Shown here: one piece after another, positions 27,987 to 62,896 of the stretch
Numbering within the stretch: position 1 is the stretch's first letter
How the letters are laid out: each line of letters starts with the position of its first letter
From: a virus
DNA: 64,000 bases
Strand: one strand, 5' to 3'
IMG/VR virus record: IMGVR_UViG_3300037246_001677
Coordinates: 56,171 to 120,170 of that record
Notes under the pieces: model-generated
What the model was told of the DNA's origin: nothing
Database searches by the model: none
What the model saw: the letters and a program-made list of their open reading frames with translations, nothing else
Translations under genes and position numbers: made by a program

Positions 27987-29612
27987 TTACGATGTTGCGT
28001 TATTATTTGGATCCACTATCATCGTAACTGCAAGAGATAACCCAGTTGTTGTTGCTATAGTTTGCAGCGAACTATAATTTTTATATTTTGTTGCTCCAGA
28101 TGATGATTTTCTACATCTAACTTCGGTATCAACAGGCGTCGAACCTGTATAACCTACATCTACTTCGCCATTTACATCTGTATCTTGATTAATAAGTTCT
28201 GTTCTATCTGAAGTTTTATAAACAGCTGTTTGAACATCTTGAATTGGATCTCCAGCTTCATCATTAACTAGAATAAGAACTGGAACTGAAGCAGTAATTA
28301 TTGTTGTTGATCCAGGTTCATCATGCCATGATGGGATTTGTCCTGTCCCAACAGCAATTGTAACAGTTCCGCCTGTATTATTGTAAATCGCTTCATTTCC
28401 TGTGCTTCCAGATGTAGCAGCATAACCAACAAATGAGCATCCTGACATTGTATAACTGTTACCTGCCATTGAAGCATTTAATTCCATGGCATATCCAGTT
28501 CCATCACTATTAAATACACAGTCATCAACAACATTTAAATTTGTAACCTCAAAACCAACAGGTCCAGATGGTTCATCAAATAAACAACCATCAAATGTTG
28601 CTCCACCTTGAGTTACTAATCCACATCTACGGAATGTTGTATCATTAATAATAACTGTATTAATTCCAACATTGAATATAAATGAATCCATATCTATGAA
28701 TGTGCATTTATCTATTGCTACATCTGCATCATCTGTCATTAAAAATCTTCCTTTTGATGCAGTTGTTACATCTAATACTTGAAATGTAAAACCTGTCATT
28801 TCAATATTACTATCTGCGTTAAGTATCTCAATTAAATTGAAGTTTGCTGTAACTTTTGGAGTCCATTTAATAAATATAGTTCTGTCGGCATCTCTGAAGT
28901 CTGCTGAAGCAGCAACAGTTCCAAGAGACATTCTACCTTGCCATAAATAACCACCACCAACTTCTTGAATCAATCCCCATCTATTAATTTGGTTATCATT
29001 TTCAAGAGCAAACCCAGGAATTGTAGCATAACCATTTCCAAGATCACCCTCCTCAAATATAGCGCTACACCTTCCAAATCTCATAGCATCAACTGAATGA
29101 GGTTCACCTTTTGATGGGAAAGCTATAAGTGCTACACCTGCACCAACAACTTGATCTGATACATATGTGCCTGTTTCTCTATCAAATGCAACAGTAGTAT
29201 TAACAGCATGACATTGAAATCCACCATAAGGATTTGGAGTTTTATCGCTTCCACCAACATCCCACCAACCAAAGTTAGAATCATCTGCACCTACAAGAAC
29301 GTGCATACCACCAAAGGTAGTTGATGTTCCTACATAATCATCTATTGCAAAAGGTGATGCAAATAATTGCCATACAAGAAAAGCACCATCCGTAGGAAGA
29401 TTTATAGCTTGACCAAAATCAAAACCTAAATTAGCAAGAGTCTTACTCTTACTACAAGTTTGAGTAATAGCAAAACTACCTTGAATGTAAGGATAATCAG
29501 CATCTTCATATGATGGGAGCCCCTGATCGTTAGTGCTAAAGCTAGTCCAACCAGAAGCTTCATCTCCGGTGGCTATGTCTGTGAGGTCTTCTGTATAGCT
29601 TGGCGCCGCCAT
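27987..29612 (-). CDS. Putative virion structural protein with beta-helix-like region
   Basis: 541 aa; xxCxF repeats (DKCTF, DGCLF, DDCVF, SGCSF). Confidence 0.55.
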   Translation of the reverse strand: MAAPSYTEDLTDIATGDEASGWTSFSTNDQGLPSYEDADYPYIQGSFAITQTCSKSKTLANLGFDFGQAINLPTDGAFLVWQLFASPFAIDDYVGTSTTFGGMHVLVGADDSNFGWWDVGGSDKTPNPYGGFQCHAVNTTVAFDRETGTYVSDQVVGAGVALIAFPSKGEPHSVDAMRFGRCSAIFEEGDLGNGYATIPGFALENDNQINRWGLIQEVGGGYLWQGRMSLGTVAASADFRDADRTIFIKWTPKVTANFNLIEILNADSNIEMTGFTFQVLDVTTASKGRFLMTDDADVAIDKCTFIDMDSFIFNVGINTVIINDTTFRRCGLVTQGGATFDGCLFDEPSGPVGFEVTNLNVVDDCVFNSDGTGYAMELNASMAGNSYTMSGCSFVGYAATSGSTGNEAIYNNTGGTVTIAVGTGQIPSWHDEPGSTTIITASVPVLILVNDEAGDPIQDVQTAVYKTSDRTELINQDTDVNGEVDVGYTGSTPVDTEVRCRKSSSGATKYKNYSSLQTIATTTGLSLAVTMIVDPNNNATS

Positions 29613-48822: not shown

Positions 48823-50400
48823 ATGGCAAAATGGTATAACCCAACAACATGGGGACAAGAACCAGAAAGAATGGATGAAGCTATAAGAGCTTTTGAGGAA
48901 AGACCAAAACCAAAATTAAAAGATACTCTTGCAACAAGAGGTGAAGGTTGGGAAAATGTACTTGATATGCCTGGCATTGGTCGAGTAGGACTGCAGTCAT
49001 TCAATATGTTTTATAATACTCTCATTAACAAACAATTTGAAAATGAGGTAGAAAGAATTTGGGAGTATAGAAGTATGGCATCCCAAACAGAAATAGCAGA
49101 TGTTGTTGAAGATGCAGTAAATGAGGCAACACAGGAAGATGATGATGGAAAAGTTTTCCATCTTGAAATCATTGATAAAGAATTAGAAAAAAATGAAAAC
49201 ATAGTTAAAAATTTAAGACAAGAATTTTATAAGCTTTTCATCGAACGTCTAAGTATGGATGATTTTGTATGGGGAATGTTCCATAACTATATGGTAGATG
49301 GTAGAGTTTTCTATGAAAGAATTATTGACTCAAGACATCCAAAAAATGGAATAATCCACGTTAAAAGATTACCATCCGAAACAATGGATTACATTTATGA
49401 TCCATTAAGTTCGGAAATTATATTGTATATGCAATATCTAAAACCAAAACCAAAAAAACCTGCTACAGTTGAAGAGGCCAGAAAAAGACATGGTGATGAC
49501 TTAATTATATTTGAACCCGACCAAATAGGATTTGTGGATTATGGTATTTATGGATCAAGTAGATACAATATTTTTGGTTACCTTGAAAAAGCAAGAGTTC
49601 CATTTAACCAATTAAAATTATTAGAAACATCAGTAATAATATATAGAATAGTAAGATCACCCGAGCGATTCGTTTTTAGAATTGACACAGGGAACATGCC
49701 AAGAGATAAGGCTCTAAAGTATGTAGAGAAAATCAAACAGAAGATGAGTAAGAAACAAACTTACGATCCTCGATCTGGCACACTTACTAATGAACCAGAA
49801 ATTATGAGCATTCTTGAAAACTTCTACTTACCACAATCTGCTGAAGGTAGAGGTAGTCAAATTGAATCCATTGGAGGATTCTCACCGGGCTTTACCGAGC
49901 TTGATGATATTTACTACTTCGCAAGAAAGCTCTACCGATCTTTGAAATATCCAGCCTCACGTGTCCAAGCAGCACAAGAAAGTAGAACAGGAGATGTTCT
50001 ATTTGGTCAAGGTGACACTGGTACTATTTCAAGAGATGAAATAAAATGGAGTAAATTCCTTGAAAGACAACAAAGGAAATTTTGTAAGGATTTTACTGAT
50101 ATGTTTTTAATTCACTTAGAATTTAAAGGTCTTAAAAAACTATATAGTTTAGATGAAGAAAAAATAAAAGTAGTTATGAATCCACCGTCCAGATACAAAG
50201 AACAAATGGATCAAAGCTTCTTAGATTCTCGTTTCAACAACTACTCTCAATTAGCAGATAGAGAAGAAATGAGTAAGTCATACTTAATGAGAAAGTACTT
50301 GAAGTGGGATGACGATGAAATCAAAGCCAATGTTGATGGAATGAAAAAAGACAAACTGCTAGGATTCAGGTCAGATGAAGAAGGCGGCGGTGGATGGTAA
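48823..50400 (+). CDS. gp20: Portal protein
   Basis: YRSMA, VDGR, NQLKLLE, IYRIVRSPERFVFRIDTGNMP, ISRDEIKW. Confidence 0.95.
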   Translation: MAKWYNPTTWGQEPERMDEAIRAFEERPKPKLKDTLATRGEGWENVLDMPGIGRVGLQSFNMFYNTLINKQFENEVERIWEYRSMASQTEIADVVEDAVNEATQEDDDGKVFHLEIIDKELEKNENIVKNLRQEFYKLFIERLSMDDFVWGMFHNYMVDGRVFYERIIDSRHPKNGIIHVKRLPSETMDYIYDPLSSEIILYMQYLKPKPKKPATVEEARKRHGDDLIIFEPDQIGFVDYGIYGSSRYNIFGYLEKARVPFNQLKLLETSVIIYRIVRSPERFVFRIDTGNMPRDKALKYVEKIKQKMSKKQTYDPRSGTLTNEPEIMSILENFYLPQSAEGRGSQIESIGGFSPGFTELDDIYYFARKLYRSLKYPASRVQAAQESRTGDVLFGQGDTGTISRDEIKWSKFLERQQRKFCKDFTDMFLIHLEFKGLKKLYSLDEEKIKVVMNPPSRYKEQMDQSFLDSRFNNYSQLADREEMSKSYLMRKYLKWDDDEIKANVDGMKKDKLLGFRSDEEGGGGW

Positions 50401-50646: not shown

Positions 50647-51249
50647 ATGATAACCAAAGCACATCTTATTACAGAAGTTAGCCATGATTTTGAAATTTCA
50701 GAATCAAGTTCAGGTGATACACACATTGTTGGTATCTTTAGCTCTGCAGAATTAGAAAACAATAACAAGAGAAGATATAAGAAATCAATACTTGAAAGAG
50801 AGTTAAAGAAAGTTCAAGAAAAGGTTTCTGGTAAATCTCTTTGGGGTGAATTAGGTCACCCACCGAATCCGGAAGTAAACCCAGATAAAATTGCTATCTT
50901 AACTACACAGTTAGAGTGGAAAGGTAATGACGTATATGGTAGAGCAAAAGTACTTGATACACCTATGGGTAATATAGCAAAAACTCTTATTAAAGAGGGT
51001 AAGATGGGTATTAGTTCGAGAGGTTTAGGAACTGTTGGAGACGATGGGTATGTAAACGAAGATTTTAACTTAATTACCTGGGACCTTGTTACTGATCCAT
51101 CAAATAGCCCATCATGGGTTAATGGTGTATATGAAGGAAGAACTTGGGAAGTAGAATCACCAGATAAGGAACCAACAATACAAGAAGCACAGGAACACCA
51201 CAAGAAACAAATTTGGCAAGTAATTAAAAATATTGAAAGTAATATTTAA
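50647..51249 (+). CDS. gp21: Prohead maturation protease
   Basis: NNNKRRY, GELGHP, LDTPMG, GISSRGLG, WDLVTDPS. Confidence 0.93.
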   Translation: MITKAHLITEVSHDFEISESSSGDTHIVGIFSSAELENNNKRRYKKSILERELKKVQEKVSGKSLWGELGHPPNPEVNPDKIAILTTQLEWKGNDVYGRAKVLDTPMGNIAKTLIKEGKMGISSRGLGTVGDDGYVNEDFNLITWDLVTDPSNSPSWVNGVYEGRTWEVESPDKEPTIQEAQEHHKKQIWQVIKNIESNI

Positions 51250-51342: not shown

Positions 51343-52176
51343 ATGGACAAACTTCTTGAAATACTTGGCGCTAATAAGTTAAACGAAGACGATCAGAGTC
51401 AAGTAAAAGAAAGACTTGAAACACTAATTGAAGTGAAAGGTCAAGAACTGTCACAGAGCAAACTTCAGGAAGCGAAGGAACAGCTAGTAGAGTCCTACGA
51501 AACTAAATTTGAAGAATATAAAGAAGATATTACTTCCAAGTTTTCAAACTTCGTTGACTCAGTTTTGGAAGAAGAAATGACAATTCCAGATAAAGTTCTT
51601 GAATTTGCAAAGAAGGGTGAGTTATATCATGACTTGATTGAACAATTCAAAATCAGATTAAGCGTTGATGAAGGATTGCTTGATGAAGAAGTGAAAAACT
51701 TACTCAAAGAAGCTAAAGGAGAAATCCTTAAACTTCGATCAGACCTTGATGAAAACATTGCTAAAAATCTTGAAGTCATCAGTGACGCACAAGAATTGGC
51801 ATCTGAGCTTTATCTCAGAAGAAAATGCGATGGTCTAACTGAAAGCCAAAAGAAAAGAGTTCTTGAAATGCTTTCTGGCATTAAAGACAGGGCTGAAATA
51901 GATCGCAAATTTGACATCGTTCTCGAAGCTTACGACGACAAAGAAGAAAAAGATGACGAGGAAGAAGAGGACGACGAGAAAAAGGAAAAGAAAAAGAAAG
52001 ACAAAGAAGAAGAAGAGGAAGACGAAGACGAGAAAAAGAAGAAAGACGAGGAAGAAGAAGAGGAAGACAAGAAAAAGAAGGAAGACAAAAAAGCCAATGA
52101 AGGCTTAAATGAGGACAGTCCCTTCAAACAACACCTTAAAGAGTATCAAAAGATACTAAGAGAAGGTAGATTTTAA
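51343..52176 (+). CDS. gp22: Prohead scaffold/core protein
   Basis: Coiled-coil, GLTESQK, E/D/K low-complexity tail, directly upstream of capsid. Confidence 0.8.
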   Translation: MDKLLEILGANKLNEDDQSQVKERLETLIEVKGQELSQSKLQEAKEQLVESYETKFEEYKEDITSKFSNFVDSVLEEEMTIPDKVLEFAKKGELYHDLIEQFKIRLSVDEGLLDEEVKNLLKEAKGEILKLRSDLDENIAKNLEVISDAQELASELYLRRKCDGLTESQKKRVLEMLSGIKDRAEIDRKFDIVLEAYDDKEEKDDEEEEDDEKKEKKKKDKEEEEEDEDEKKKKDEEEEEEDKKKKEDKKANEGLNEDSPFKQHLKEYQKILREGRF

Positions 52177-52208: not shown

Positions 52209-53432
52209 ATGGACGTTAGAGACCTAGTCAAAAAATGGGAAGGAGTTCTAAATGAAGGCGGAAAAATTAAATCTGAAAAGATTCAAAAAAGTACTGCCAT
52301 CATGTTAGAAAACCAACACAACTACCTCATGGAGCAAACTGCTTGGGGTAATGACTCGTTTGGTACTGGTGACGGTCGTGGCTTAGCTAATTGGCCAACT
52401 TCTGGTATGTTTAACAAAATCGCAGTTCCGATGGTTAGACGTACTTTTCCAGAATTGGTAGCACATCAACTAGTTGGTGTACAACCACTAACCGGACCTG
52501 TTGGTCTTGCTTTTGCGCTTAGGTTCAGAGCAGGTACGACAGCCGGTAATTATACTGCGAATGTAACAGAACTTGGTTACAATACCATCGACTCTACTTA
52601 TTCAGGTTCATATATCACCTCTGCTGGTGAAGCCTTAGGTTCTAAGGCCGGTTCTGGTGTAGGAAATGATATTGGACTTGGTGTAGGATCTGGTACACAT
52701 ATTCGTGAAGTCAACTTGACCGTTGAAAAAGTACAGATTGAAGCAAAAACCCGTAAACTAAGAAGCCGTTGGTCCCTTGAAGTTGCTCAAGATTTGAAAG
52801 CTATGCACGGTCTTGATCTCGAAGAGGAAATGATGGATATTCTAGCTTACGAAATTACCCAAGAAATCGACCGTGAATTGATTGCAGCTATAGACGCTAC
52901 AGTCAGAGGCGTTACTGGTTATGACACAACCTGGGACTTCTTAGCTTCGGCACAAGGAGTAAAAGGTAGATGGGAGATGGAGCGTTATCGTGAGCTTTAT
53001 CACAGTGTTATACGTAGATGCCAAGACATCGCAATCAACACACGTAGAGGATCGGGTAACTGGATCGTAGGTAATCCAAGAGCCGTTGCTATTCTTGAAA
53101 CTCTGGCAGCTTTTACAATTGCCCCAGTTCCAAGTGATGTAACAACTCAACCAACTGGAGTATCAAGGATCGGTTCTCTTGACGGAAGATTAGTAGTTTA
53201 CCGTGATACTTTTGAAAGTAGAGATCAATTCCTAGTGGGTTATAAAGGCCCAAGTGAATATGATACAGGTGTAATTTATTTACCTTACATCCAACTACTT
53301 GCAAGTAAAGCAGTATTCGAAAACTCATTCCATCCAACAGTAGGATTGATGAGTCGTTATGCGATTCACAACCATATGTTCGGAGCAAGAGAATATTACC
53401 AGTTAATTCAATTAACGAATATTCCACAATAA
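52209..53432 (+). CDS. gp23: Major capsid protein
   Basis: KW..VLNE, MLENQ, VRRTFP.L, GVQPLTGP.GL.FALR, AKTRKL..RWS.E.AQDLKAMHG, VGYKG, YLPY. Confidence 0.97.
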   Translation: MDVRDLVKKWEGVLNEGGKIKSEKIQKSTAIMLENQHNYLMEQTAWGNDSFGTGDGRGLANWPTSGMFNKIAVPMVRRTFPELVAHQLVGVQPLTGPVGLAFALRFRAGTTAGNYTANVTELGYNTIDSTYSGSYITSAGEALGSKAGSGVGNDIGLGVGSGTHIREVNLTVEKVQIEAKTRKLRSRWSLEVAQDLKAMHGLDLEEEMMDILAYEITQEIDRELIAAIDATVRGVTGYDTTWDFLASAQGVKGRWEMERYRELYHSVIRRCQDIAINTRRGSGNWIVGNPRAVAILETLAAFTIAPVPSDVTTQPTGVSRIGSLDGRLVVYRDTFESRDQFLVGYKGPSEYDTGVIYLPYIQLLASKAVFENSFHPTVGLMSRYAIHNHMFGAREYYQLIQLTNIPQ

Positions 53433-53446
53433 AGAGTAAACCAAAC

Positions 53447-53481
53447 AAAAAGGCGGTGAATTTATTTTCACCGCTTTTTTT
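53447..53481 (+). terminator. Rho-independent terminator after capsid gene
   Basis: GCGGTGAA/TTCACCGC stem flanked by A- and T-tracts. Confidence 0.85.
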
Positions 53482-53491
53482 ATGCCAAATA

Positions 53492-53527
53492 TTTACATTT
53501 AACCATTTTTGTAGTATAATATAAATA
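53492..53527 (+). promoter_or_regulatory. Overlapping sigma70-type (TTTACA-17-TATAAT) and late (TATAAATA) promoters
   Basis: TTTACA 53492-97, TATAAT 53515-20, TATAAATA 53520-27. Confidence 0.7.
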
Positions 53528-53550
53528 CTGTGCAGGAGGATTATAAAAGC

Positions 53551-53976
53551 ATGGAATTAAACAGAAATAATTTATCCGATGCCTTTGATATGGATGGCAT
53601 AGAAAGTGAAGTGGATCGTCTTACCCTTGTTTCAGACACTGACCCGGAAGAAGTACTTAAAGAAAATATAGACAGAGCGAATAGAATATTAGATAGGGTA
53701 GAACAAGAATTAGAAAGTGGAAATTTTACAGCAAGAATGGTAGAGGTTGCTGGAGCCATTTTAAATACCGTAACGAACTCGAGTAAGGAAATAATGGCTA
53801 ACATTAACTATAAAAAATATTTACAAATTCGCGATTCTATGGTAAAATATAAGTATGATGAATTGGAATCCAAAAAAGCAAAATTCCGTTCTCCAACGAG
53901 TCAAAATATTATCGTCTCAAATAGAGAAGATATAATGAAACTACTAAACGGAGAATTAAAACAAATTGAAAAATAA
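53551..53976 (+). CDS. Probable terminase small subunit (gp16-like)
   Basis: ARMVEVAG and NIIVSNREDIMKLL resemble T4-like TerS; start ATG 53551 after AGGAGG. Confidence 0.6.
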   Translation: MELNRNNLSDAFDMDGIESEVDRLTLVSDTDPEEVLKENIDRANRILDRVEQELESGNFTARMVEVAGAILNTVTNSSKEIMANINYKKYLQIRDSMVKYKYDELESKKAKFRSPTSQNIIVSNREDIMKLLNGELKQIEK

Positions 53977-54001
53977 AAAACTAAAAGAAAGGAAAACTGT
54001 T

Positions 54002-55966
54002 ATGTTTGATAAGAACAACGATTTTATGGAGGTCATCCTTGGTCAGCAAAAAGGAACTGGTATCAAAAAGTGGGAGGGAACGACCATTGATTATTTGGCT
54101 GAAGTAGAAAAAAGACCAGAAATTTGCAATTTTGCCCCTGGTCGAATCTATAATATGATTATGAAGGTGGGCACAGAGCAAGTATCAGACGAGTTAAAAA
54201 CTAAAGGTTATGAGGATTTAGTTAAATATAATTTCTTCAAGAAAAAAATCTTCGGTACTCTTGAGCCGATTCATGATATGATGAAATTTATGAAAGCCGC
54301 TGCAAGGAGAACAGAAACTGGTAAACGAATCTTTATCATGGTTGGTCCTGTTTCTTCGGGTAAATCAACTATCGCTGCCTTAATCAAAAGAGGACTTGAA
54401 AAGGACTGTACTCCAAAATATGCAATCTCAGGATGTCCAATCCACGAGGAACCTCTTCACTTGATTCCAGAAGATGATCGACCATACTGGGAGGATCGAC
54501 TTGGTATAAAAATCGAGGGCCATCTTTGTCCGGTTTGTACTCAAATGTTGGATGAAAAATACACAAACAAAGATGGAGTAATTCAATGGCATGAGGTACC
54601 AACCGAAACAATTAGAATCAGTGAACAACGAAGGATTTGTATCGGTACATTCCAACCTAGTGATCCAAAATCACAGGACATTACTGAACTTATTGGTCGA
54701 GTTGATATGACTAAGATGGCTAGATATGGTGAAACCGATCCAAAAGCTTATAAGTTCGATGGTGAGCTTCAAGTTGCAAATGGTGGTATGATTGAATACA
54801 TCGAAATTCTAAAAGCAGATATTAAATTTCACTATATTCTTATCACCGCCGCTCAAGAGCAAGTTATCAAGGCCCCTGGTTTCCCACAAATGTACATTGA
54901 TACATTGATTATGAGTCATACAAACCAAACAGAATTTGACTCATTCAAATCAGACAAAAAGAACGAAGCTCTACATGATAGGATGTATAAAGTAGAGGTA
55001 CCATGGAATCTAAGAGTAGATGATGAAATAAAGATTTATGAAAAAATGATTGATGAATCTGACTTTAGAAATATCCATATCGCCCCTGGAACATTGAGAG
55101 TTGCCGCAGAGTTTGCAGTACTTTCAAGATTGAGAAAGTCAACCAGAGTTAGCAATAAAATCACCAAGATGAAACTCTACAACGGTGAAATTCCAGTCGA
55201 GTTCAAAAAGACCGACATTGATATTAAGAAATTAAGAGAAGAAGGAAGAGAACTAGGTGAAGGTATGAGTGGTATCTCTCCAAGATTTGTTGTTAATGCT
55301 CTTAACTTAGCACTTGGTGCAAAAGAAGAAAGGAAGTGTATAAATCCGATTGACATGATTAGATCACTTAGAGATAACTTTAACCATCACATTGGTATTC
55401 CAGATGAAGATAAAGAAATCTTTATGAGTATATTAACTGGTAACAAAGAGTCGGTAGCATCCGAGTATAAAGATTGGGCAAAGAAAGAAGTCAACATGGC
55501 TTTCTTATGGGCATATGATGAACAAGCCCAGGAACTATTTTACAGGTATATGATAAATGCCGAAGGTTATTGTAAAAATGAACAAATCATTGATTCAGTA
55601 ACTGGTGAATATCATAACCCAGATGAAAAAGTCATGAGGTCCATCGAAGAACTAATCGGAGTACCAATGGAATCAAGAAAAGAATTTAGAAATGGTATTT
55701 TCGTTTATAAATCAGACTTCTTAGGTAGAGGCAAAGACTTTACTTTCAAGGACTACGATCCGTTGAGAGAAGGTATTGAGAAAAAGTTGATGGGTGATTT
55801 GAAAAATGTTGTATCACTTTCAATTGCTGACTCATCTGCCACAAATCCGAAGTCCAAAAAGAGAAGAGAGGTGGCCCTGGAAACCTTGAAAGAAAAAGGA
55901 TATTGTGATAAATGTGGTTCAATGCTTCTTAGCTTTATAGGTGAGGTATTACGTAAGGAAGATTAA
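54002..55966 (+). CDS. prkA: PrkA/YeaG-family AAA+ serine kinase
   Basis: MVGPVSSGKST, CPIHEEPL, FQPSDPKSQD, ANGGMIEYIEILK, NEALHDR, EGMSGISPRF. Confidence 0.93.
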   Translation: MFDKNNDFMEVILGQQKGTGIKKWEGTTIDYLAEVEKRPEICNFAPGRIYNMIMKVGTEQVSDELKTKGYEDLVKYNFFKKKIFGTLEPIHDMMKFMKAAARRTETGKRIFIMVGPVSSGKSTIAALIKRGLEKDCTPKYAISGCPIHEEPLHLIPEDDRPYWEDRLGIKIEGHLCPVCTQMLDEKYTNKDGVIQWHEVPTETIRISEQRRICIGTFQPSDPKSQDITELIGRVDMTKMARYGETDPKAYKFDGELQVANGGMIEYIEILKADIKFHYILITAAQEQVIKAPGFPQMYIDTLIMSHTNQTEFDSFKSDKKNEALHDRMYKVEVPWNLRVDDEIKIYEKMIDESDFRNIHIAPGTLRVAAEFAVLSRLRKSTRVSNKITKMKLYNGEIPVEFKKTDIDIKKLREEGRELGEGMSGISPRFVVNALNLALGAKEERKCINPIDMIRSLRDNFNHHIGIPDEDKEIFMSILTGNKESVASEYKDWAKKEVNMAFLWAYDEQAQELFYRYMINAEGYCKNEQIIDSVTGEYHNPDEKVMRSIEELIGVPMESRKEFRNGIFVYKSDFLGRGKDFTFKDYDPLREGIEKKLMGDLKNVVSLSIADSSATNPKSKKRREVALETLKEKGYCDKCGSMLLSFIGEVLRKED

Positions 55967-56076
55967 AAATAGCAGATTGGAACTTTAGTAGACTGCCGTT
56001 AGCGGGCCGGTGCTCATTGAGATAGGAAGGTTAAAATAAATAGCAGACTGACAAATATCCGTTGAGCTATGGAGGT

Positions 56077-56108
56077 GAAAACTCCGGAGGTTTTCCTCCG
56101 GAGTTTTC
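56077..56108 (+). terminator. Perfect 14-bp hairpin/terminator after prkA
   Basis: GAAAACTCCGGAGG-TTTT-CCTCCGGAGTTTTC. Confidence 0.8.
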
Positions 56109-56121
56109 TTATCTGAAGTAA

Positions 56122-56150
56122 TTTACATTCTCACTGAGTTATGATATAAT
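56122..56150 (+). promoter_or_regulatory. Sigma70-type promoter TTTACA-17-TATAAT with extended -10 TG
   Basis: TTTACA 56122-27, TGATATAAT ending 56150. Confidence 0.75.
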
Positions 56151-56156
56151 AAGATT

Positions 56157-56333
56157 ATGAATAAGAAAATAATAAATTTTATTTTCACTTTGTTATTAAT
56201 AAGAATGTTCGTTATAAGCGCATTTAATATTTGGCTTGTGTTTTTGCTTATAGTTTTTTGTGGAGACTGGTTAGCTATATTATGGTTAACTGATAAAAAT
56301 AATGATGAAAGGAAACAAAATGAATCTTTATAA
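56157..56333 (+). CDS. 58-aa hydrophobic membrane protein (not in ORF track)
   Basis: MNKKIINFIFTLLLIRMFVISAFNIWLVFLLIVFCG; possibly leaderless. Confidence 0.45.
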   Translation: MNKKIINFIFTLLLIRMFVISAFNIWLVFLLIVFCGDWLAILWLTDKNNDERKQNESL

Positions 56334-56499
56334 GAAGAACATGGGATTTTTTATTAATGCTGCCTTTTGGACAATAGCACTTTTTACTGATCCAATTTGG
56401 ATATTAATTAAAGAGTTAGGACCAATAGCTCTTGCTTTACCAGTTATGTTTGGTTGGTTACTGGCTAACTTTGAAAAAGATATTGACTGGGAGTTATAA
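56302..56499 (+). CDS. Small two-TM membrane protein
   Basis: Hydrophobic segments; start may be 56320. Confidence 0.55.
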   Translation: MMKGNKMNLYKKNMGFFINAAFWTIALFTDPIWILIKELGPIALALPVMFGWLLANFEKDIDWEL

Positions 56500-56720
56500 T
56501 GATAAGAACAATAATAAGAGAAATTGTTTATGCCGGAACTACTATAGCAATATCATTATTTAATGCTCTAGTAGAAACCTATGTAGCAATAAGAAGTATA
56601 ATGACTTGCATATGGTGGATGATGAATTTTTGCACTGTTGAGTATACAGTTGAGGATGACGATGGAACAATAATACACCGATTTCCCCAATTAAATAATG
56701 GAGACAATGATGGATTCTGA
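56499..56720 (+). CDS. Small hydrophobic hypothetical protein
   Basis: TAATG-coupled. Confidence 0.5.
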   Translation: MIRTIIREIVYAGTTIAISLFNALVETYVAIRSIMTCIWWMMNFCTVEYTVEDDDGTIIHRFPQLNNGDNDGF

Positions 56721-56895
56721 AAGAAAATTTGAATTGATAAAAGAACTAATAAAGGACCATAAGGTTAGTAAAATAAATAGCTTTGCCGCTATGATAGCTT
56801 TGGAATTAATAGTTGATCCTAAAAAACCAAGCAAAGAATGCAAAGAGTGGGCCAAGGATTGCTTAAAAATAGGAAGGTATTATAATGAAAATTGA
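56698..56895 (+). CDS. Small hypothetical protein
   Basis: Overlapping chain of small ORFs. Confidence 0.5.
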   Translation: METMMDSERKFELIKELIKDHKVSKINSFAAMIALELIVDPKKPSKECKEWAKDCLKIGRYYNEN

Positions 56896-57070
56896 AGTGA
56901 CACTAACTGTAGTAGAAAACGAATCCATTGAATATACTATCACCACAGGTGGAGAAACCTGGGAAGATATTCACACAATAATAAATAATGCAGAAAAAAT
57001 TAATTTACGAAAAGAAAAACCAAAGAAAAAAGGAAAGAGATTACCTGGATTTATACAGGAAAAGGAGTAA
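56885..57070 (+). CDS. Small hypothetical protein
   Basis: AGGAAGG SD. Confidence 0.5.
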   Translation: MKIEVTLTVVENESIEYTITTGGETWEDIHTIINNAEKINLRKEKPKKKGKRLPGFIQEKE

Positions 57071-57075
57071 ATGAA

Positions 57076-57258
57076 ATGCCTTACATAACGAAGGAAGATT
57101 TCAAATTTTTGCTCAGCTTGGCTCCTGATTGGGTTAATGATCCCAATAACGGACACGATCCAACTATGTACGGAACTGGAACCTATGAAGGGGATATCAA
57201 AGTCCACAATCGGATGGTAGAAATCAAGAATCAAATCCTTGGAAAGGAAAAAATATGA
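57076..57258 (+). CDS. Small hypothetical protein
   Basis: DPTMYGTG; ATGA overlap with yeaH. Confidence 0.55.
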   Translation: MPYITKEDFKFLLSLAPDWVNDPNNGHDPTMYGTGTYEGDIKVHNRMVEIKNQILGKEKI

Positions 57259-58610
57259 ACATACTTACTGGACTAGGCTTAGTAGCCACCACTATTTTAC
57301 ATGACGACTGGGATTTAAGTGAGAAAGGTAAAAAGGATGCCGAACGACATCAAGAAAAAATTGATGATGCTATTCGGAAAAATGTCCGTGATGTTATAGG
57401 TGAAGAGTCAATCATTACTAAAAAGGGGAAACGAAAAGTTCGAGTACCTGTAAGAGGAATGAAAGATTATAGATTTGTTCACGGTGATAATAAAGGACCA
57501 ACTGCTGGTGTTGGACAAGGTGATGGAAAAGCTGGTGATATTATCGACCAGAGACCGAATCAAGATGGACAACCTGGTGAACACAAACCTGGTGAACAAC
57601 GAGGTGAAGATTATATGGAAGCAGAAGTTGATATTGACTATCTGCTCAAAATAATGTTTGAGGACCTTGGTCTTCCTTGGATTGAAGAAAAAACTACTGC
57701 CAAAAAACTTGTTCCAAAGGGTTGGAAATTCGAAACAATTTCTAAAAAGGGCATCATGCCAAGGGTTCATAAAAAAAGAACAATGATGGAGGCAGTTAAA
57801 AGAAATATCATGTTATCCGCCGCTATCATGGAAGAAACTGGAGTTGATGAACCAACATCCTATAAAGCATTAAACCAAGCATATGGCGATATAAATTATG
57901 CTATAGAACTCATTGAAAAGAATGAAGTCAATTCAGATCAAGATGCGATTGTTATCAATGAGGATGACTTAAGATTCAAACAAATTGAAGAGGACACAGA
58001 ATACCATTCAAATGCTGTAGTTATAGCAATGATGGATGTATCTTATTCAATGGGTCCAGAAAAGAAGTACTTATGTAGAAGCCTTCTTTTCTGGTTGACT
58101 GAGTTTTTAAAGAAAAGATATGACCATGTTGATATTAGATTCATTCAACATACGACAGAAGCACAAATTGTTGATGAAGATACATTCTTTCACACTCACA
58201 CAACTGGTGGTACCATGTGTTTTACTGCTTTTGAAAAAGCTAACTACATGATTGACACAGAATATCCGTTGAATGAGTGGAATGTTTACTGTATCTATGT
58301 TGGTGATGGTGAAGATTTTGATACCAAGAAAACAGTTCAACAAATTGATTTAATGATTCAGAAGAAAATCAACATGTTAGGTTATGTTGAAATTGATCTT
58401 GACCACGACGAAGATGGTTTTGGTTTTAGAAATGCAATGAGAACTCTTCTGGTACAAATTAAAAAGAAATGGAATTTTTCCCATAACCGCGAAAGAGAAA
58501 CTGATTTTTATAAAAATGAAAAGAGTAGATTTCTGTGTGCAGTTATTAGGAATAAAACTCATGTATGGCCAACCCTTAAACACTTTTTATTTGAAAAGGA
58601 GAAAAAATAA
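57255..58610 (+). CDS. yeaH: YeaH/YhbH (DUF444) vWA-domain protein
   Basis: HDDWDL..KG, GVGQGDG, FEDLGLP, EDDLRF, MMDVSYSMG (MIDAS), TGGT, GDGED. Confidence 0.92.
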   Translation: MNILTGLGLVATTILHDDWDLSEKGKKDAERHQEKIDDAIRKNVRDVIGEESIITKKGKRKVRVPVRGMKDYRFVHGDNKGPTAGVGQGDGKAGDIIDQRPNQDGQPGEHKPGEQRGEDYMEAEVDIDYLLKIMFEDLGLPWIEEKTTAKKLVPKGWKFETISKKGIMPRVHKKRTMMEAVKRNIMLSAAIMEETGVDEPTSYKALNQAYGDINYAIELIEKNEVNSDQDAIVINEDDLRFKQIEEDTEYHSNAVVIAMMDVSYSMGPEKKYLCRSLLFWLTEFLKKRYDHVDIRFIQHTTEAQIVDEDTFFHTHTTGGTMCFTAFEKANYMIDTEYPLNEWNVYCIYVGDGEDFDTKKTVQQIDLMIQKKINMLGYVEIDLDHDEDGFGFRNAMRTLLVQIKKKWNFSHNRERETDFYKNEKSRFLCAVIRNKTHVWPTLKHFLFEKEKK

Positions 58611-58828
58611 TGGAAATGTTAAACGAAAGACAATTAGAAAACGGTGACTATGTTTATGACTGTACTTTTGAAGATGGTGAGTTCAAAACTCTATTAGGGT
58701 ATACCATTGAAAAGTACTTGAAAAATGAAGCCGATGAACTGACAGAAGAAATGAATAAGCTGATGAGTTTTGCTGTGACTGGTATCCTAAGAGAACAAAT
58801 GGAAAGGGAACACGATGGAAAAAAGTGA
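58610..58828 (+). CDS. Small hypothetical protein
   Basis: Between yeaH and spoVR, coupled. Confidence 0.55.
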   Translation: MEMLNERQLENGDYVYDCTFEDGEFKTLLGYTIEKYLKNEADELTEEMNKLMSFAVTGILREQMEREHDGKK

Positions 58829-60395
58829 ACTAAAACAACTAATAAAAATAGAGGATAGAATATATCAAATTGCAGAAGAAGAAGGACTTGAGTTCTGCGA
58901 TATTGAATTTGATATTATCCCACCACAGAAAATGCTAGAGATTATGGCTTACCGAATCCCCGGTAATATTTCAAACTGGAAGTATGGACGTGACTATGAA
59001 AGACTCAGAACAATTCATGAAAAGGTTCACGCGGGACTTCCATATGAAGTAGTCATAAACTCAGACCCATCAAGAGCATACTTGATGAAAGAGAACACTT
59101 TTGCTGTTCAAGCATTAGTCATGGCTCATGTTGTTGGTCACGTTGCTTTTTTCACAATGAATAAGTACTTCGCAGATACAAATAAAGATATTATTCCATT
59201 TATGAGTGAAGCTACAAAAAGATTCAATAAGTATGAAAGAATGTATGGCATAGATCAAGTTGAAAAAATAATTGATGCCGCACATTCAATTCAGTTTCAC
59301 TCTAGTCCATTTGATAATGAAACTGAAACTGAAAAAAGAGAAAGGATTTTTAAACAAAGAAAACAACAAGCTCATACAAAAAGAACAGCGGAATTTGATG
59401 ATATTGTTCCTATTGATGAAGCCTATAAAGACATGGATATTGCTCAATTCAATCAAAGACTTTGGAGATCATTAAAACTTAAAACACCTGTTGAACCAAC
59501 AGAGGACTTGTTAAGATATGTTATTGATAATTCAACAACACTTGAAAATTGGCAGAAAGATATTCTTGAAGTACTTAGAAGAGAAGGTAGATACTTCTGG
59601 CCTCAAATGAGAACCAGATATATGAATGAAGGATTTGCAACTTATTGGCATGAAAAAATAATGGGTAGATTATTTAAAGAAGAAGCGCTAAACATAAAAG
59701 ACCATGCTCAATATAACTTTTCTAACTCACTTGTAAAAGCCTCCCATAGAACAGCTTTAAATCCATATCTTATTGGTTCTAAAATGTGGGAAGATATTGT
59801 AATGAGATATGATAAAGGTAGATACGGTAGAGATTGGGATAATTGTGAACTCAGAAAGGAAAGAGATAATTGGGACACTAAAGAAATGCGTGGCAAAGAA
59901 AAAATGTTTGAGATCGTCAGAACCCATACTGACTGGTTCTTTATGAAAGGATATTTAACCCCAGATTTGGTAGATGATTTAGAACTCTACATTTTTGTTG
60001 AAAGAGTAAACCCAGTGACAAAGGACTTAGTCATTACAAAACAAAGAGCTGAAAAGATTGCTGAAATGATTGTACTAAACTTCACTCACAGTGGTGTTCC
60101 AAAAATTGACATCGTTGATGGCAATTGGAAGCAGATGGGACATTTATATCTTGCGCATAGATGGTCCGGAGCTAATCTTAAAAGAGATTACTGTAAAAAG
60201 ACCTTACAACATATTGCAAATATTTGGGGTAAGAATGTCTATCTCGAAACAAAAGATGGTCCTAAGAAAAAACTAATATATAAAGTAGAAAGAAAAGCCA
60301 AACTTGGTGGACCAAAGACACCTTCCGGTTCTCCAAGTATTAGCAGTAGTAGCATAAATCCGGATGTTTGGTCAACAATGATCGTTTCTGAATAA
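58815..60395 (+). CDS. spoVR: SpoVR/YcgB family protein
   Basis: PYEVVINSDP, MAHVVGHVAFF, WQKDIL, YFWPQ, MNEGFATYWH, NPYLIG. Confidence 0.93.
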   Translation: MEKSELKQLIKIEDRIYQIAEEEGLEFCDIEFDIIPPQKMLEIMAYRIPGNISNWKYGRDYERLRTIHEKVHAGLPYEVVINSDPSRAYLMKENTFAVQALVMAHVVGHVAFFTMNKYFADTNKDIIPFMSEATKRFNKYERMYGIDQVEKIIDAAHSIQFHSSPFDNETETEKRERIFKQRKQQAHTKRTAEFDDIVPIDEAYKDMDIAQFNQRLWRSLKLKTPVEPTEDLLRYVIDNSTTLENWQKDILEVLRREGRYFWPQMRTRYMNEGFATYWHEKIMGRLFKEEALNIKDHAQYNFSNSLVKASHRTALNPYLIGSKMWEDIVMRYDKGRYGRDWDNCELRKERDNWDTKEMRGKEKMFEIVRTHTDWFFMKGYLTPDLVDDLELYIFVERVNPVTKDLVITKQRAEKIAEMIVLNFTHSGVPKIDIVDGNWKQMGHLYLAHRWSGANLKRDYCKKTLQHIANIWGKNVYLETKDGPKKKLIYKVERKAKLGGPKTPSGSPSISSSSINPDVWSTMIVSE

Positions 60396-60446
60396 AAAAA
60401 CCCTGTATATCCGCATAAATAACTAAGTAGATATACAGGGTTTTTT
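60395..60446 (+). terminator. Terminator with late-promoter-like CATAAATA in its 18-nt loop
   Basis: AAAAAACCCTGTATATC / GATATACAGGGTTTTTT. Confidence 0.8.
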
Positions 60447-60482
60447 ATGCCCTGAATTTATAAATTAGGGAGGGAGACAGAA

Positions 60483-62030
60483 ATGGCAATAAGGTACGAC
60501 CAACAATTTGTTAAAAGACCAAGAGAAGAACTAGAATATACACCAGAACAGATACTTGAACTTCAAAAATGCATGCAAAGTGTTAATTATTTTTTGAAGT
60601 ATATTAAAATAGTTAACCCAGACCGAGGTGAAATATTTTTCGAACCGTATGATTATCAAATCGAGCTTCTTCAAAAGTTTCAGGATCATAGATTTAATGT
60701 AGGTTTATGCTCTCGCCAATCTGGTAAAACAACTATCGTATCTGCTTACGTACTTTGGTATGCTATTTTTCATGCAGATAAAAATATAGGAATTGTATCA
60801 AATAAAGAGTCAAGTGCCAAAATGATTTTATCAAGACTCAAAAGAATGTATGAGTGCTTACCATTTTGGTTAAAACCAGGTGTTACAGAATACTCTAAAA
60901 CTTTTACTACATTTGATAATGGAACAAGAATAATTATTTCAGCAACCTCACCCGATGCCTTTCGTGGTGAGTCAATGAACCTACTATGTTGTGACGAATT
61001 TGCGTTCGTCCCAAGTGTAGCAGCTGAGGACTTCTGGGCTGCTAACTATCCCACCATTTCAGCATCCAAACAAGCAAAAATCATAATCATTTCAACTCCA
61101 AACGGTCTATTCAATATATTCCATAGAATATGGGCACAGGCCAAAGCTGGGCTAAATACTTTTGTAACCACAAAAGTAAGTTATGAAAGAGTACCAGGCA
61201 GAGACGAAGAGTGGGCTGAAGAACAAATCAAAAATCTTGGTATGCAAAAGTTCAATCAAGAATTTGCAGTTAAGTTTATTGGATCAACAAATACAGTTCT
61301 AAACTCAGAAACAATTAAAACACTTCTAGCCTCTTGGAAAGAACCAGAGTTTGTAGACTTACAAGATAGACTCAGAATTTGGGAAAAACCAGAAGAAGGA
61401 GCATCATATGTATTAGGAGTAGACCCGGCAAAAGGAACAGGAGAAAACTGGTCCACAATACAAGTTTTTAAAATAATATCCTTAAATCCAGTAAAAATGG
61501 ATCAAGTTGCAGTATTCGAACATAATCTAACAGATGTTTTTGAATTTACAGATATTGTAGATAAAACATGTCTATACTATAACGGTGCATATATAATGTG
61601 TGAAAATAATGGTGAAGGCGCTGCAGTAATTCAAAGACTATGGTGGGATATTGAAAACGAACATCTTGTCAACTCTGGTTCCAAAACAGCTAGCCTTGGT
61701 GTTAGAGCTTCAAGAACCACAAAACCAAAAGCTGTTTTACTTATGAAAAAATTGATAGAAGATGGTAGTGTAAAGTTGGTTGATAAAAACACTATTCAAC
61801 AACTTGGTTCATTTATAGAAGAAAAAAATAAGTTTTTTGGTAAAGATAAACCAGATGATTTAGTATCAGCACTTTACTGGGCATGTTATCTATTAGAAAT
61901 GGATGTTCTTGATGAAAGTTATGAATTTATTGAATCTGAGGATAACGATGACGCATGGGGAGTACTATCAGACGTTGAGGCTGATATAGATGACTGGAGA
62001 TGGTTGACCGAAACAGAAGTTTTTGGATAA
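60483..62030 (+). CDS. gp17: Terminase large subunit
   Basis: SRQSGKTT, FRGES, CDEFAFV, ISTPNG, FNQEF, LGVDPAKG, ENN, DDLVSAL. Confidence 0.96.
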   Translation: MAIRYDQQFVKRPREELEYTPEQILELQKCMQSVNYFLKYIKIVNPDRGEIFFEPYDYQIELLQKFQDHRFNVGLCSRQSGKTTIVSAYVLWYAIFHADKNIGIVSNKESSAKMILSRLKRMYECLPFWLKPGVTEYSKTFTTFDNGTRIIISATSPDAFRGESMNLLCCDEFAFVPSVAAEDFWAANYPTISASKQAKIIIISTPNGLFNIFHRIWAQAKAGLNTFVTTKVSYERVPGRDEEWAEEQIKNLGMQKFNQEFAVKFIGSTNTVLNSETIKTLLASWKEPEFVDLQDRLRIWEKPEEGASYVLGVDPAKGTGENWSTIQVFKIISLNPVKMDQVAVFEHNLTDVFEFTDIVDKTCLYYNGAYIMCENNGEGAAVIQRLWWDIENEHLVNSGSKTASLGVRASRTTKPKAVLLMKKLIEDGSVKLVDKNTIQQLGSFIEEKNKFFGKDKPDDLVSALYWACYLLEMDVLDESYEFIESEDNDDAWGVLSDVEADIDDWRWLTETEVFG

Positions 62031-62059
62031 ATAGATAAATAAAGATAAGAGGATTTAAA

Positions 62060-62896
62060 ATGGCCATCACAAAACAACAACTAGCAGAAAAAATCAAACG
62101 TAGACTTGGATATCCAATGATTAAAGTTGAACTTGATCCACAGCAAATTGATGATACCATTGATTATGCACGTGATAAATTTATTAAGTGGGCAACTGGT
62201 CAAGCAACGCAAGAAACATACTTTACTATGTTATTGTCTGCTGGTCAAAACTTTTATGATTTACCAGTTGGTGTAACTGAAGTATTATCATACAATGATA
62301 AAGGATCCTCATGGGGAATAAATACATTATTTACTATTGATAATTACTTATATAGTAGAGGAGTATTTGATCCCATCTTTTGGGGCAGTGGAAGTGATTA
62401 TAACTTAATCTCATATCACATAGCCAGAGATTTTTTAGATACCCTTTCAAGATACACACCAAGTGTTTATAATTGGAAATATCATAGATTTGAAAACCAA
62501 TTAGAAATACATCCAGTTCCTCCATCTGGAAATTCAGTTTCTGTTACAGATCAATATGGTAATCTTATAGAAGCAGACACACCTGGATATGTTTTACTAA
62601 GAGCATATATGATTGAAGCGAGTCAGTATAATAATACAGATAGAGGATGGACGCCCGAGGATAGCTTTGAGAATTTCTATACTAGTGATTGGATTTTTGA
62701 CTATGCTCTTGCAGAGTGTAAAATTATACTTGGTAGAATAAGGACTAAATTTGCACAATTTGCATCTATTGGAAATACAGGTATAGCCTTAGATGGAGAT
62801 GCTCTGCTTAGCGAGGGAATAGAGGAAAAGAGGGAATTAAAAGAGACACTTCAATTAGAGGAGGTCTGGGATGGATATGATATATCAATGGGATAA
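62060..62896 (+). CDS. gp13: Neck protein gp13-like
   Basis: RRLGYP.IKVEL...QIDD.I, WIFDYALA..K..LG..R.KF, LDG..L..EG. Confidence 0.88.
   Translation: MAITKQQLAEKIKRRLGYPMIKVELDPQQIDDTIDYARDKFIKWATGQATQETYFTMLLSAGQNFYDLPVGVTEVLSYNDKGSSWGINTLFTIDNYLYSRGVFDPIFWGSGSDYNLISYHIARDFLDTLSRYTPSVYNWKYHRFENQLEIHPVPPSGNSVSVTDQYGNLIEADTPGYVLLRAYMIEASQYNNTDRGWTPEDSFENFYTSDWIFDYALAECKIILGRIRTKFAQFASIGNTGIALDGDALLSEGIEEKRELKETLQLEEVWDGYDISMG

Follow-up and report, generated by a model that had tools for sequence, protein, structure and literature searches.

A conserved PrkA-YeaH-SpoVR triad between the terminase genes of an uncultured T4-like phage clade, with a possible role in recycling host protein

Why should a lytic-type T4-like phage keep a complete bacterial stress module between the genes for the two subunits of its terminase? 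The question is raised by a 64,000-nucleotide stretch of viral DNA (hereafter the window), the final 64 kb of the linear 120,170-bp IMG/VR viral contig IMGVR_UViG_3300037246_001677, whose completeness is estimated at ~50%. In the window, genes for the AAA+ protein PrkA (YeaG), for YeaH, which has a von Willebrand factor A (vWA) domain, and for SpoVR (YcgB) follow a gene resembling that of a small terminase subunit (TerS) and precede that of the large subunit (TerL) (Table 1). The triad is functional, is inherited vertically and belongs to an uncultured T4-like clade from marine-sediment and cold-seep samples. As to what it does, the reading that we rank first, with somewhat less than even confidence, is a late-expressed machine of AAA+, vWA and zincin-like parts that would recycle host protein.

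The three products are full-length members of their families. PrkA matches PF08298 (369.6 bits, 2.1e-110) and PF06798 (219.8 bits, 6.5e-65; cut-offs 25) and aligns end to end with the PDB entry 9xip, a 'serine protein kinase' (residues 33-661, E 1.3e-118). YeaH matches PF04285 over its full length (294.5 bits), and SpoVR matches PF04293 (334.7 bits) and PF24755 (40.6 bits); the Pfam scan found a transmembrane or M41 domain in none of the three. The open reading frames (ORFs) are free of stops and frameshifts, and their order is that of 76 of 80 cellular loci. Pfam and the ORF map therefore confirm what a first-pass annotation had read from the letters alone, namely full-length PrkA, YeaH and SpoVR in the order usual in bacteria, with a TerS-like gene before them and TerL after. 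Every motif that it had named is also in its place: the Walker A sequence GPVSSGKST at residue 127 of PrkA, DVSYS (261), TGGT (317) and GDGED (350) in YeaH, and HVVGH (105) and NEGFA (271) in SpoVR. K133 and S134 of the Walker A motif, the aromatic pore-loop position 254 (Y, F, H or W), the acidic, Walker B-like E280, the sensor N320 and R339 are kept in 27 of 27 viral PrkA sequences. The metal-ion-dependent adhesion site (MIDAS) of YeaH (D261, S263, S265, T320, D351) is invariant in an alignment of 44 sequences, and in SpoVR the invariant residues are H105, H109, E272, G273, H279 and N316-P317-Y318.

The cellular operon, yeaG(spdA)/prkA-yeaH/yhbH-ycgB/spoVR, has the same three Pfam families, gene order, Walker A motif, pore loop, MIDAS and SpoVR residues. 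The phage copy differs in lying in the packaging operon of a lytic-type T4-like phage, with a late-promoter-like motif instead of a stress-sigma promoter, in being interrupted by small phage ORFs, and in that its phage relatives carry inteins. In the window, the interruptions are five small ORFs between prkA and yeaH and a 72-aa ORF between yeaH and spoVR. Scans of the 72-aa ORF with Pfam and PHROGs, and of three of the five with Pfam, assigned them to no family. Homologues of the five are restricted to the closest relatives of the window phage (loci L002, L004, L005, L030, L079 and L081), and the 72-aa ORF is 95% identical in L002 and 36-44% identical in L004, L005 and L030. The five-ORF insert carries its own terminator-like hairpin and sigma-70-like site. 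Its first two ORFs look hydrophobic.

A triad that is typically cellular, on a linear contig that is about half complete, could be an assembly chimera with host DNA or a recent, decaying moron. The composition of the window contradicts this: its guanine-cytosine (GC) content is ~0.33 throughout, with 0.34-0.36 in the triad and 0.35 in TerL, as against 0.45-0.53 in the nearest cellular loci. Depth is even as well, since three overlapping contigs of run X1 tile positions 53400-62100 at depths of 9.18, 8.82 and 8.37 with 0-1 differences, though X1 may be the source sample and this evidence is therefore not independent. Short pieces of relatives cover the region in runs X2 and X3 (marine sediment) and X10 (cold seep), and the habitat labels of the runs with the phage or its relatives are marine sediment and cold seep. 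Among the 11 sequencing runs listed, none is an RNA run, and the shares in X4-X9 and X11 are small. The same arrangement recurs in dozens of other viral contigs, the ORFs are undamaged and at most 56% identical to cellular genes, and inteins have been kept in relatives. The chimera that the first-pass annotation had raised is thus contradicted by GC content, depth and synteny, and we give an artefact or passenger practically no weight.

The extent of the clade has been measured from two sides. A PrkA-anchored scan of IMG/VR gave 75 loci, 43 of them in the window clade (PrkA 63-95% identical), and 32 of these 43 have the order terS-like, PrkA, YeaH, SpoVR, TerL. Of the remaining 11, nine are cut by contig ends and two (L016 and L029) have the triad elsewhere. 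A TerL-anchored scan gave 54 loci; every one of the 18 clade loci that extend 3 kb or more upstream has SpoVR, and triad genes are present in none of the 28 loci whose TerL is 28-40% identical. Because the scans share several contigs, and some contigs are near-duplicates, the counts do not stand for independent events. In L016 and L029, which nest inside the clade in the trees of all three proteins, the major capsid protein (MCP), the TerS-like protein and TerL are unmatched within ~10 kb upstream and ~4 kb (L016) or 6.7 kb (L029) downstream of the triad. Two adjacent ORFs resembling phrog_4871, 'ATP-dependent protease', lie 1.9 kb downstream of the triad in L029 (17206-19067) and may together form a single split gene; on its upstream side the L029 triad has two radical-SAM ORFs.

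Within the clade, the triad is conserved to the same degree as the head genes. Among members less than 80% identical to the window, the median identity to the window is 67% for PrkA (n = 40), 65% for TerL (n = 40), 64% for MCP (n = 32) and the prohead protease (n = 22), 57% for the portal (n = 6), 56% for YeaH (n = 49) and SpoVR (n = 45), 53% for the scaffold (n = 14) and 42% for the TerS-like protein (n = 35). Since the identities of the triad and of the hallmark proteins are alike, the triad is under purifying selection of comparable strength. In this it stands apart from phage auxiliary genes, being clade-wide and conserved like core genes.

Inteins give a further view of the triad in the relatives of the window phage. 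Intein_splicing and LAGLIDADG domains were found by Pfam inside overlong triad ORFs of relatives, and the window genes are free of them. PrkA has one intein each in L032 (7991-11299), L036 and L042 and three in L037 (6815-12454); SpoVR has one each in L021 (5497-8064), L034, L042 and L052 (3255-5816; a locus of the separate viral group vir2 described below) and two in L037 (14665-18693); YeaH has one, in L016 (12447-15083). Placed on the window proteins by BLAST, which is approximate to a few residues, the insertion points in PrkA are the Walker A motif (GK|S), ~235/236, ~284/285 and SHT|N at the sensor Asn. In YeaH the point is H313|T314, just ahead of the TGGT of the MIDAS Thr loop, and in SpoVR the points are ~83 and NEGFA|T (275/276). 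TerL inteins are present in L015, L024 (11667-14543), L034 and L035, at GK|T and other sites. Inteins typically persist at conserved functional sites in important proteins. The loops in which they sit, including the SpoVR NEGFA loop, are thus likely to be functionally critical, and their maintenance argues that the triad proteins are made. TerL appears to be split or interrupted after residue ~260 in L021, L037, L039 and L042, where its ORFs of 294-303 aa cover only residues 1 to ~260-275; the cause may be a further mobile insertion (another intein, an intron or a free-standing endonuclease) or, for some of them, the contig end.

The origin of the triad has been examined with one genome per prokaryotic species, from which the best 80 cellular loci were kept. 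Among these, PrkA is 55-56% identical to the window in three loci (L132-L134, from two Fibrobacteria and one 'Deltaproteobacteria' metagenome-assembled genome) and at most 42% in the rest; the maximum for cellular copies is 56% for PrkA, 42% for YeaH and 48% for SpoVR. The flanks of L133 are ordinary bacterial genes, for a glycosyltransferase, an aminotransferase and a carbamoyltransferase. FastTree trees with local support and midpoint rooting were built for PrkA (134 rows: 79 cellular, 27 from the clade, the window, 21 vir2, 5 vir3, and phiYS40), YeaH (134) and SpoVR (120), a length filter having removed intein-bearing, truncated and duplicate sequences. In each of the three trees the window clade is one branch with a support of 100*, and its sister group is the same cellular loci, L132-L134. 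Of the two outcomes that the first-pass annotation had set side by side, a phage clade or a recent host capture, the monophyly and the low cellular identities favour the former. The clade ancestor thus took up the triad once, in one block and long ago; the midpoint rooting of the trees does not show the direction of transfer.

Other viruses carry the triad too. The group vir2 (L043-L070; contigs up to 361 kb) has the order YeaH-SpoVR-PrkA and, like the jumbo contigs of vir3, is monophyletic and placed elsewhere in the tree. Among ten ORFs neighbouring the triad of L046 (vir2), eight have no PHROG family and none has a structural annotation. Among cultured-phage records, window PrkA matches only 17 genomes, at 26-36% identity; these include the Thermus phages phiYS40, TMA, MN1, phiLo and Lalka, huge-phage contigs, Ralstonia phage RsoM2USA and Enterobacter phage LAU1. 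In phiYS40 the triad is YS40_056, 057 and 059, in the order YeaH-SpoVR-x-PrkA and two genes from TerL, and its PrkA forms a separate long branch. The order is shared with vir2, yet the two do not group in the PrkA tree. Whole-triad uptake by phages has occurred in at least three or four separate events, that of phiYS40 among them. In the jumbo phage RsoM2USA, PrkA is ORF30 and SpoVR is ORF28; both appear as table entries with a BLAST-based annotation, beside which the paper, in the part available, offers no further function (PMC8504454). The Thermus phages, the huge-phage contigs and RsoM2USA are like the window phage in having the triad, but none of them is a T4-like phage that has it in the terS-terL interval.

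The first-pass annotation had placed host-sigma promoters ahead of the terS-like gene and between prkA and yeaH and had read them as early. Both sites do match the sigma-70 consensus at 11 of 12 positions, and as a class such sites show no enrichment in the region, with a count of 49 as against 61.4 +/- 6.8 in shuffles. The early timing is not supported, for the signal conserved ahead of the terS-like gene is TATAAATA, a late motif of the T4 type. In 24 of 38 clade loci, and in the window, this gene has the motif in the 120 nt before it; TerL has it in 13 of 32. No copy precedes PrkA (0 of 40), YeaH (0 of 40), SpoVR (0 of 39) or MCP (0 of 30) in the clade loci. In the window it also stands 25 nt before the start of the portal gene. 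Judged from its frequency in the window, the chance of meeting the motif in a 141-nt stretch is about 1%. We infer that transcription of the module is late and shared with the packaging genes, starting at a T4-type promoter ahead of the terS-like gene. As pairs of a hairpin and a sigma-70-like site follow both the MCP gene and prkA, the terS-like gene and prkA look like one late unit; in the window phage and its closest relatives, yeaH, spoVR and terL may also be driven from the site at 56122.

What a late-expressed triad could do is best approached through its cellular homologues. YeaG, renamed SpdA, is required for a largely nonspecific, starvation-induced degradation of cytoplasmic protein that supplies amino acids and ATP (PMC13684143, PNAS 2026), and yeaG, yeaH and ycgB show tight cofitness in six bacteria (10.1101/072470, a 2016 preprint). 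Highly purified PrkA is described as a clade III AAA+ protein like YME1, with a pore loop and no detectable protease or kinase activity (PMC13001217, J Bacteriol 2026); that paper questions the weak protease activity reported for PrkA in 2022 (PMC9512850). Since purified PrkA lacks a protease activity of its own, a partner must provide the hydrolysis. The cofitness, the YeaG-dependent proteolysis, the inactivity of purified PrkA and the present results together make a three-part ATP-dependent degradation machine, with SpoVR as its hydrolytic or gating part, the most economical model. The nearness of the L029 triad to ORFs annotated as an ATP-dependent protease has been counted in its favour.

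In the phage, the triad would do in the infected cell what its cellular homologues do. PrkA would form an AAA+ ring of the FtsH/YME1 type that engages cytoplasmic proteins, and the N-terminal arm of YeaH would hold SpoVR, leaving the vWA domain with its MIDAS free for another partner such as PrkA. The zincin-like domain of SpoVR, with its HxxxH and NEGFA helices, would supply or control hydrolysis. Jointly, the three would drive a bulk, starvation-type turnover of host protein, freeing amino acids and energy at a time when hundreds of capsid subunits are needed in an energy-starved host. A more specific form of this proposal is that the triad is a split FtsH-like ATP-dependent metalloprotease, in which SpoVR is the missing catalytic part of YeaG proteolysis, with PrkA as the unfoldase and YeaH as the bridging subunit, and that, set in the terS-terL operon, it belongs to a core late set of the whole clade that cannibalises the proteome of a starved host for amino acids; we consider this form possible but unlikely.

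The part assigned to YeaH draws on a structure prediction of the two-protein complex, YeaH with SpoVR. Three runs gave interface scores (ipSAE) of 0.69, 0.68 and 0.68, against 0.00 for the best of three controls. As a rough guide, obtained with the alignments of this study, a score of 0.68 or more was attained by 58 of 80 solved complexes and by 2 of 110 mismatched pairs. Contacts agree between runs to at least 83%, and the predicted local distance difference test (pLDDT) score of the partner is at least 80. The predicted interface joins the N-terminal arm of YeaH (residues 12-35 and 68-102, among them the invariant F74) to residues 3-62, 146-162, 310-319 and 389-466 of SpoVR and leaves the vWA domain of YeaH free. 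The prediction thus supports a binding of YeaH to SpoVR.

The part assigned to SpoVR draws on an AlphaFold2 (AF2) model built from 44 sequences (pLDDT 85.1, predicted template modelling score 0.82). In a comparison of the model with 48,161 chains by VIA-align, nearly all of the best 50 rows are zincin metallopeptidases, matched over residues 1 to ~390. The best match is 3o0y (Z 10.9, root-mean-square deviation 4.0, 192 residues aligned), followed by the M30 peptidase lugdulysin (Z 9.8), M1 aminopeptidases and leukotriene A4 (LTA4) hydrolase (Z 9.2-9.7) and a DUF885 protein (Z 9.3). Lower matches include M61, M3, M2, M32 and M9 peptidases and thermolysin (Z 7.0), the whole range being Z 6-10.9. 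The model has the gluzincin layout of a strand (86-91), a helix with HVVGH (96-115) and a later helix with NEGFA (268-288), and the top Foldseek rows, which are weak, include anthrax lethal factor, DPP3 and ACE2. The NEGFA motif we take to resemble the third-ligand motif 'NEGFA' of the M1 family. Single-sequence searches of the PDB with YeaH and with SpoVR gave no matches, and among the literature matches listed, no title or start of an abstract presents SpoVR as a peptidase. The zincin-like model of SpoVR and the predicted YeaH-SpoVR complex appear to be new.

Several of the results weigh against a proteolytic machine expressed late, and they are collected here. The Z scores of 9-11 for SpoVR are within the chance range for largely helical models, Foldseek returned nothing from the PDB at E <= 0.001, and the SpoVR alignment profile had no match to PDB sequences at E <= 10. 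The motif is HVVGH (consensus AHVxGH) and not HExxH, so that both His are invariant and the general-base Glu is missing. Because of the chance-range scores and the absent Glu, SpoVR is not classed as a zincin here; the zincin-like character that the first-pass annotation had read from HVVGH and NEGFA holds as a likeness of fold in the model and falls short at the catalytic Glu. SpoVR may work like a zincin or may be a metal-binding pseudo-peptidase. As to timing, the window has 12 copies of TATAAATA where 11.6 would be expected, no excess over chance, for which reason the number is uninformative and only the position is telling. The hairpin and the sigma-70-like site that part prkA from yeaH also mean that the three triad genes need not share a transcript or its timing. 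YeaH and YcgB have no occurrence each in the main text of PMC13684143, and their role in proteolysis is therefore argued from cofitness alone. Finally, a role linked to packaging would also fit the location between the terminase genes, which most of the clade has retained.

A signalling role has been weighed against the proteolytic one. Here the triad would be a regulatory, kinase-like or remodelling switch governing the entry of the host to a starvation or stationary state, or its exit from it (for example, on an RpoS-type programme or ribosome hibernation) without bulk proteolysis, so that a dormant sediment cell would then support lytic growth. Cellular mutants show pleiotropic, species-specific nitrogen and carbon phenotypes, for which a signalling pathway has been proposed (10.1101/072470), and PrkA mutants alter the expression of many sporulation genes (PMC13001217). 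The marine-sediment and cold-seep labels, which make slow-growing hosts likely, and the intact motifs of all three proteins are in keeping with such a switch. The promoter motif and the operon position suggest an expression that is late for reprogramming a host, and the zincin-like fold of SpoVR together with the YeaG-dependent bulk proteolysis points to hydrolysis. The switch is thus rather improbable in our judgement, and the manipulation of dormancy or starvation suggested in the first-pass annotation, while keeping some standing, is better recast as proteolysis than as kinase signalling. Induction of sporulation as such was considered separately and rejected, the family being common in non-sporulating bacteria and the nearest cellular relatives being Fibrobacteria and 'Deltaproteobacteria' assemblies.

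The position of the triad directs attention to the gene on its upstream side, which the first-pass annotation had called TerS-like. Its ATG at 53551 agrees with the N-termini of the homologues, whereas the automated ORF start is the GTG at 53530; the length of the ORF is 141-148 aa. The family phrog_445, 'terminase small subunit', is matched by 19 of 24 homologues (best 5e-8; window copy 0.0037), and this ORF is its sole match in the 120-kb contig; phrog_735 is matched by 8 of the 24. The Pfam family of gp16, PF11053, is matched by one of the 24 (E 0.024) and has no match across the contig at E <= 1. An hhalign comparison of the profile with gp16 of S-PM2 is weak (E 0.011, probability 4%). AF2 models the protein as a long hairpin of helices (pLDDT 73.9; helices 39-62 and 68-119), a shape also known from the gp16 family; Foldseek returned nothing significant for the model, gp16 of 44RR (3txq) ranking only 27th (E 2.2). 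The gene is not directly upstream of terL, 6.5 kb and the triad lying between. The ORF is real and, through phrog_445, probably TerS, as had been supposed; the Pfam gp16 family adds next to nothing to this assignment.

In 33 of 38 clade loci the TerS-like ORF overlaps prkA or ends at most 30 nt from it, and the greatest distance is 89 nt; each of the other junctions in the region takes insertions of more than 500 nt. A 137-aa ORF overlaps prkA likewise in L029; hhalign of the TerS-like profile against it found no match (E 0.16). The constancy of this junction raises the question of whether the small protein is a partner of PrkA, instead of or besides TerL.

The tight junction, the location between the terminase genes in 32 of 43 clade loci, the late-promoter motif, a conservation equal to that of core head genes, and the phiYS40 triad two genes from TerL are what would be expected of a morphogenesis or packaging helper, that is, a triad repurposed to assemble, remodel or process the prohead, the portal or the terminase motor. 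A helper of this kind is harder to reconcile with L016 and L029, whose triads are away from MCP and TerL, and with vir2 and vir3, whose triads have another gene order and lie beside genes without structural annotation (as examined in L046). A prohead protease (gp21), a scaffold and a portal are also among the phage's own proteins, and the catalytic and interface residues of the triad are the same as in cellular homologues. Furthermore, the T4-like cyanophage S-PM2 has three small, unrelated ORFs between gp16 and gp17, and this site therefore tolerates insertions. The role in head or packaging-motor assembly suggested in the first-pass annotation is accordingly disfavoured, and we regard it as distinctly unlikely.

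A more selective protease is the last alternative: a targeted takeover or counter-defence activity that removes particular host proteins, such as defence proteins, competitors for transcription or proteases. AAA+ unfoldases with adaptors (Lon, Clp, FtsH) are often substrate-selective, and the vWA domain of YeaH, with its MIDAS intact and free in the predicted complex, could bind a specific partner. Several unrelated large phages have also taken up the triad independently. Against this, the only physiological data concern a largely nonspecific turnover (PMC13684143), late timing is poor for counter-defence, and no PADLOC or other anti-defence evidence came up, though no search aimed at it was made. 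Of the functional alternatives this seems to us the least likely, with only a slight chance of being right.

Returning to the recycling of host protein, the proposed machine can be set beside known systems. To FtsH and YME1 the triad is alike in the clade III AAA+ type and pore loop 1 of PrkA (PMC13001217) and in the zincin-like SpoVR model, with its His-x3-His and Glu helices. FtsH and YME1 join their AAA+ and M41 domains in one polypeptide, whereas the parts of the triad are separate proteins, joined through the vWA protein as predicted; SpoVR is without the HExxH Glu, and the PDB profile search found no homology at the level of sequence. MoxR-type pairs are alike in having an AAA+ gene beside a gene for a MIDAS vWA protein. 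PrkA presumably differs from them in belonging to another AAA+ family (PF08298), in its kinase-like C-terminal domain and in an obligatory third, zincin-like partner. T4-like phages have nucleases that degrade host DNA and so recycle host macromolecules. The triad would resemble such genes in being host-derived and in feeding phage synthesis, with protein as the resource here.

Whatever its activity, the triad is a host stress module that, throughout an uncultured T4-like lineage, has become as fixed and as conserved as the genes for capsid and terminase. If the recycling of host protein is true, it would be a new class of resource-recycling auxiliary function that acts on protein, a counterpart to the recycling of host DNA by phage nucleases and suited to energy-starved hosts in sediment. 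It would also change how 'sporulation' auxiliary metabolic genes in viromes are read. In oxygen-minimum-zone viromes, spoVR is the most abundant of these and has been taken as sporulation-inducing (PMC8940887), a reading that is unlikely because the SpoVR family is widespread in non-sporulating bacteria (10.1101/072470). The zincin-like model of SpoVR, the NEGFA and MIDAS sites marked by inteins and the predicted interface suggest, in testable form, what the missing hydrolase may be and how the complex may be built, and the compact, divergent phage versions widen the sequence diversity for structural work. In the searchable literature, outside which subscription papers and supplements lie, a triad set between the terminase genes of a T4-like clade, inteins in triad proteins and a zincin-like SpoVR are undescribed, and PrkA was not found as an auxiliary metabolic gene. 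Within the same scope, the RsoM2USA paper alone concerns phage copies of PrkA and SpoVR.

Table 1. Genes and putative expression signals of the head and packaging region (window coordinates)
Feature	Coordinates	Strand	Evidence and remarks
gp20 portal	48823-50400	+	PF07230
gp21 prohead protease	50647-51249	+	PF03420
gp22-like scaffold	51343-52176	+	PF25623
gp23-like major capsid protein, upstream module boundary	52209-53432	+	PF07068 6.6e-93, phrog_138
Terminator-like hairpin and T-run after capsid gene	53452-53481	+	RNAfold -14.2 kcal/mol; scan reports same hairpin on minus strand
Sigma-70-like site TTTACA-17-TATAAT	53492-53520	+	11/12; consensus match only
T4-type late-promoter-like motif TATAAATA	53520-53527	+	31 nt before ATG 53551
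gp16-like small terminase (probable), helical-hairpin protein	53551-53976	+	phrog_445; end overlaps prkA start
PrkA/YeaG-family AAA+ protein, 666 aa	53966-55966	+	PF08298 and PF06798; PDB 9xip
Strong terminator-like hairpin and TTTTCTT after prkA	56082-56110	+	RNAfold -25.8 kcal/mol
Sigma-70-like site TTTACA-17-TATAAT with TG	56122-56150	+	11/12; consensus match only
Five small ORFs (60-73 aa) between prkA and yeaH	56302-57258	+	No family
DUF444/YeaH vWA protein, 451 aa, full MIDAS	57255-58610	+	PF04285 1.9e-87
72-aa ORF between yeaH and spoVR	58610-58828	+	No family (Pfam, PHROGs)
SpoVR/YcgB-family protein, 526 aa	58815-60395	+	PF04293 8.9e-100 and PF24755 (SpoVR_C)
gp17-like large terminase TerL	60483-62030	+	PF03237 and PF17289 (Terminase_6N/6C); phrog_36964, phrog_5989, phrog_2
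Head-tail adaptor	62060-62896	+	

The triad stands within a T4-type head and packaging module that occupies 48.8-63 kb of the plus strand, as identified by Pfam and PHROG matches, and the T4-like head set of gp20, gp21, gp22, gp23 and gp17 (PF03237) is complete. T4-like replication genes, for a gp43-type polymerase, a DnaB-like helicase and another helicase, lie elsewhere in the window. The capsid protein and TerL are only 34-37% identical, or less, to those of any cultured phage, the nearest being from cyanophages and from Pelagibacter, Methylophilales and Desulfovibrio phages, and a megablast of the 8.5-kb region against cultured phages matched nothing. On the minus strand, five large ORFs of a presumed tail and baseplate region (18286-19770, 21119-24334, 25432-27927, 27987-29612 and 37909-40590; 494-1071 aa) have no PHROG match at 1e-5, which underlines the divergence of the lineage. 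The tRNA and Rfam scans of the window found nothing. Two further ORFs, in a window that itself lacks tRNA genes, are translation-related auxiliary genes: a tRNA nucleotidyltransferase of the CCA-adding type at 1391-2818 (phrog_2244, 9e-79) and, at 3224-4648, an ATP-grasp protein resembling 'ribosomal protein S6 glutaminyl transferase' (phrog_2599, 8e-23).

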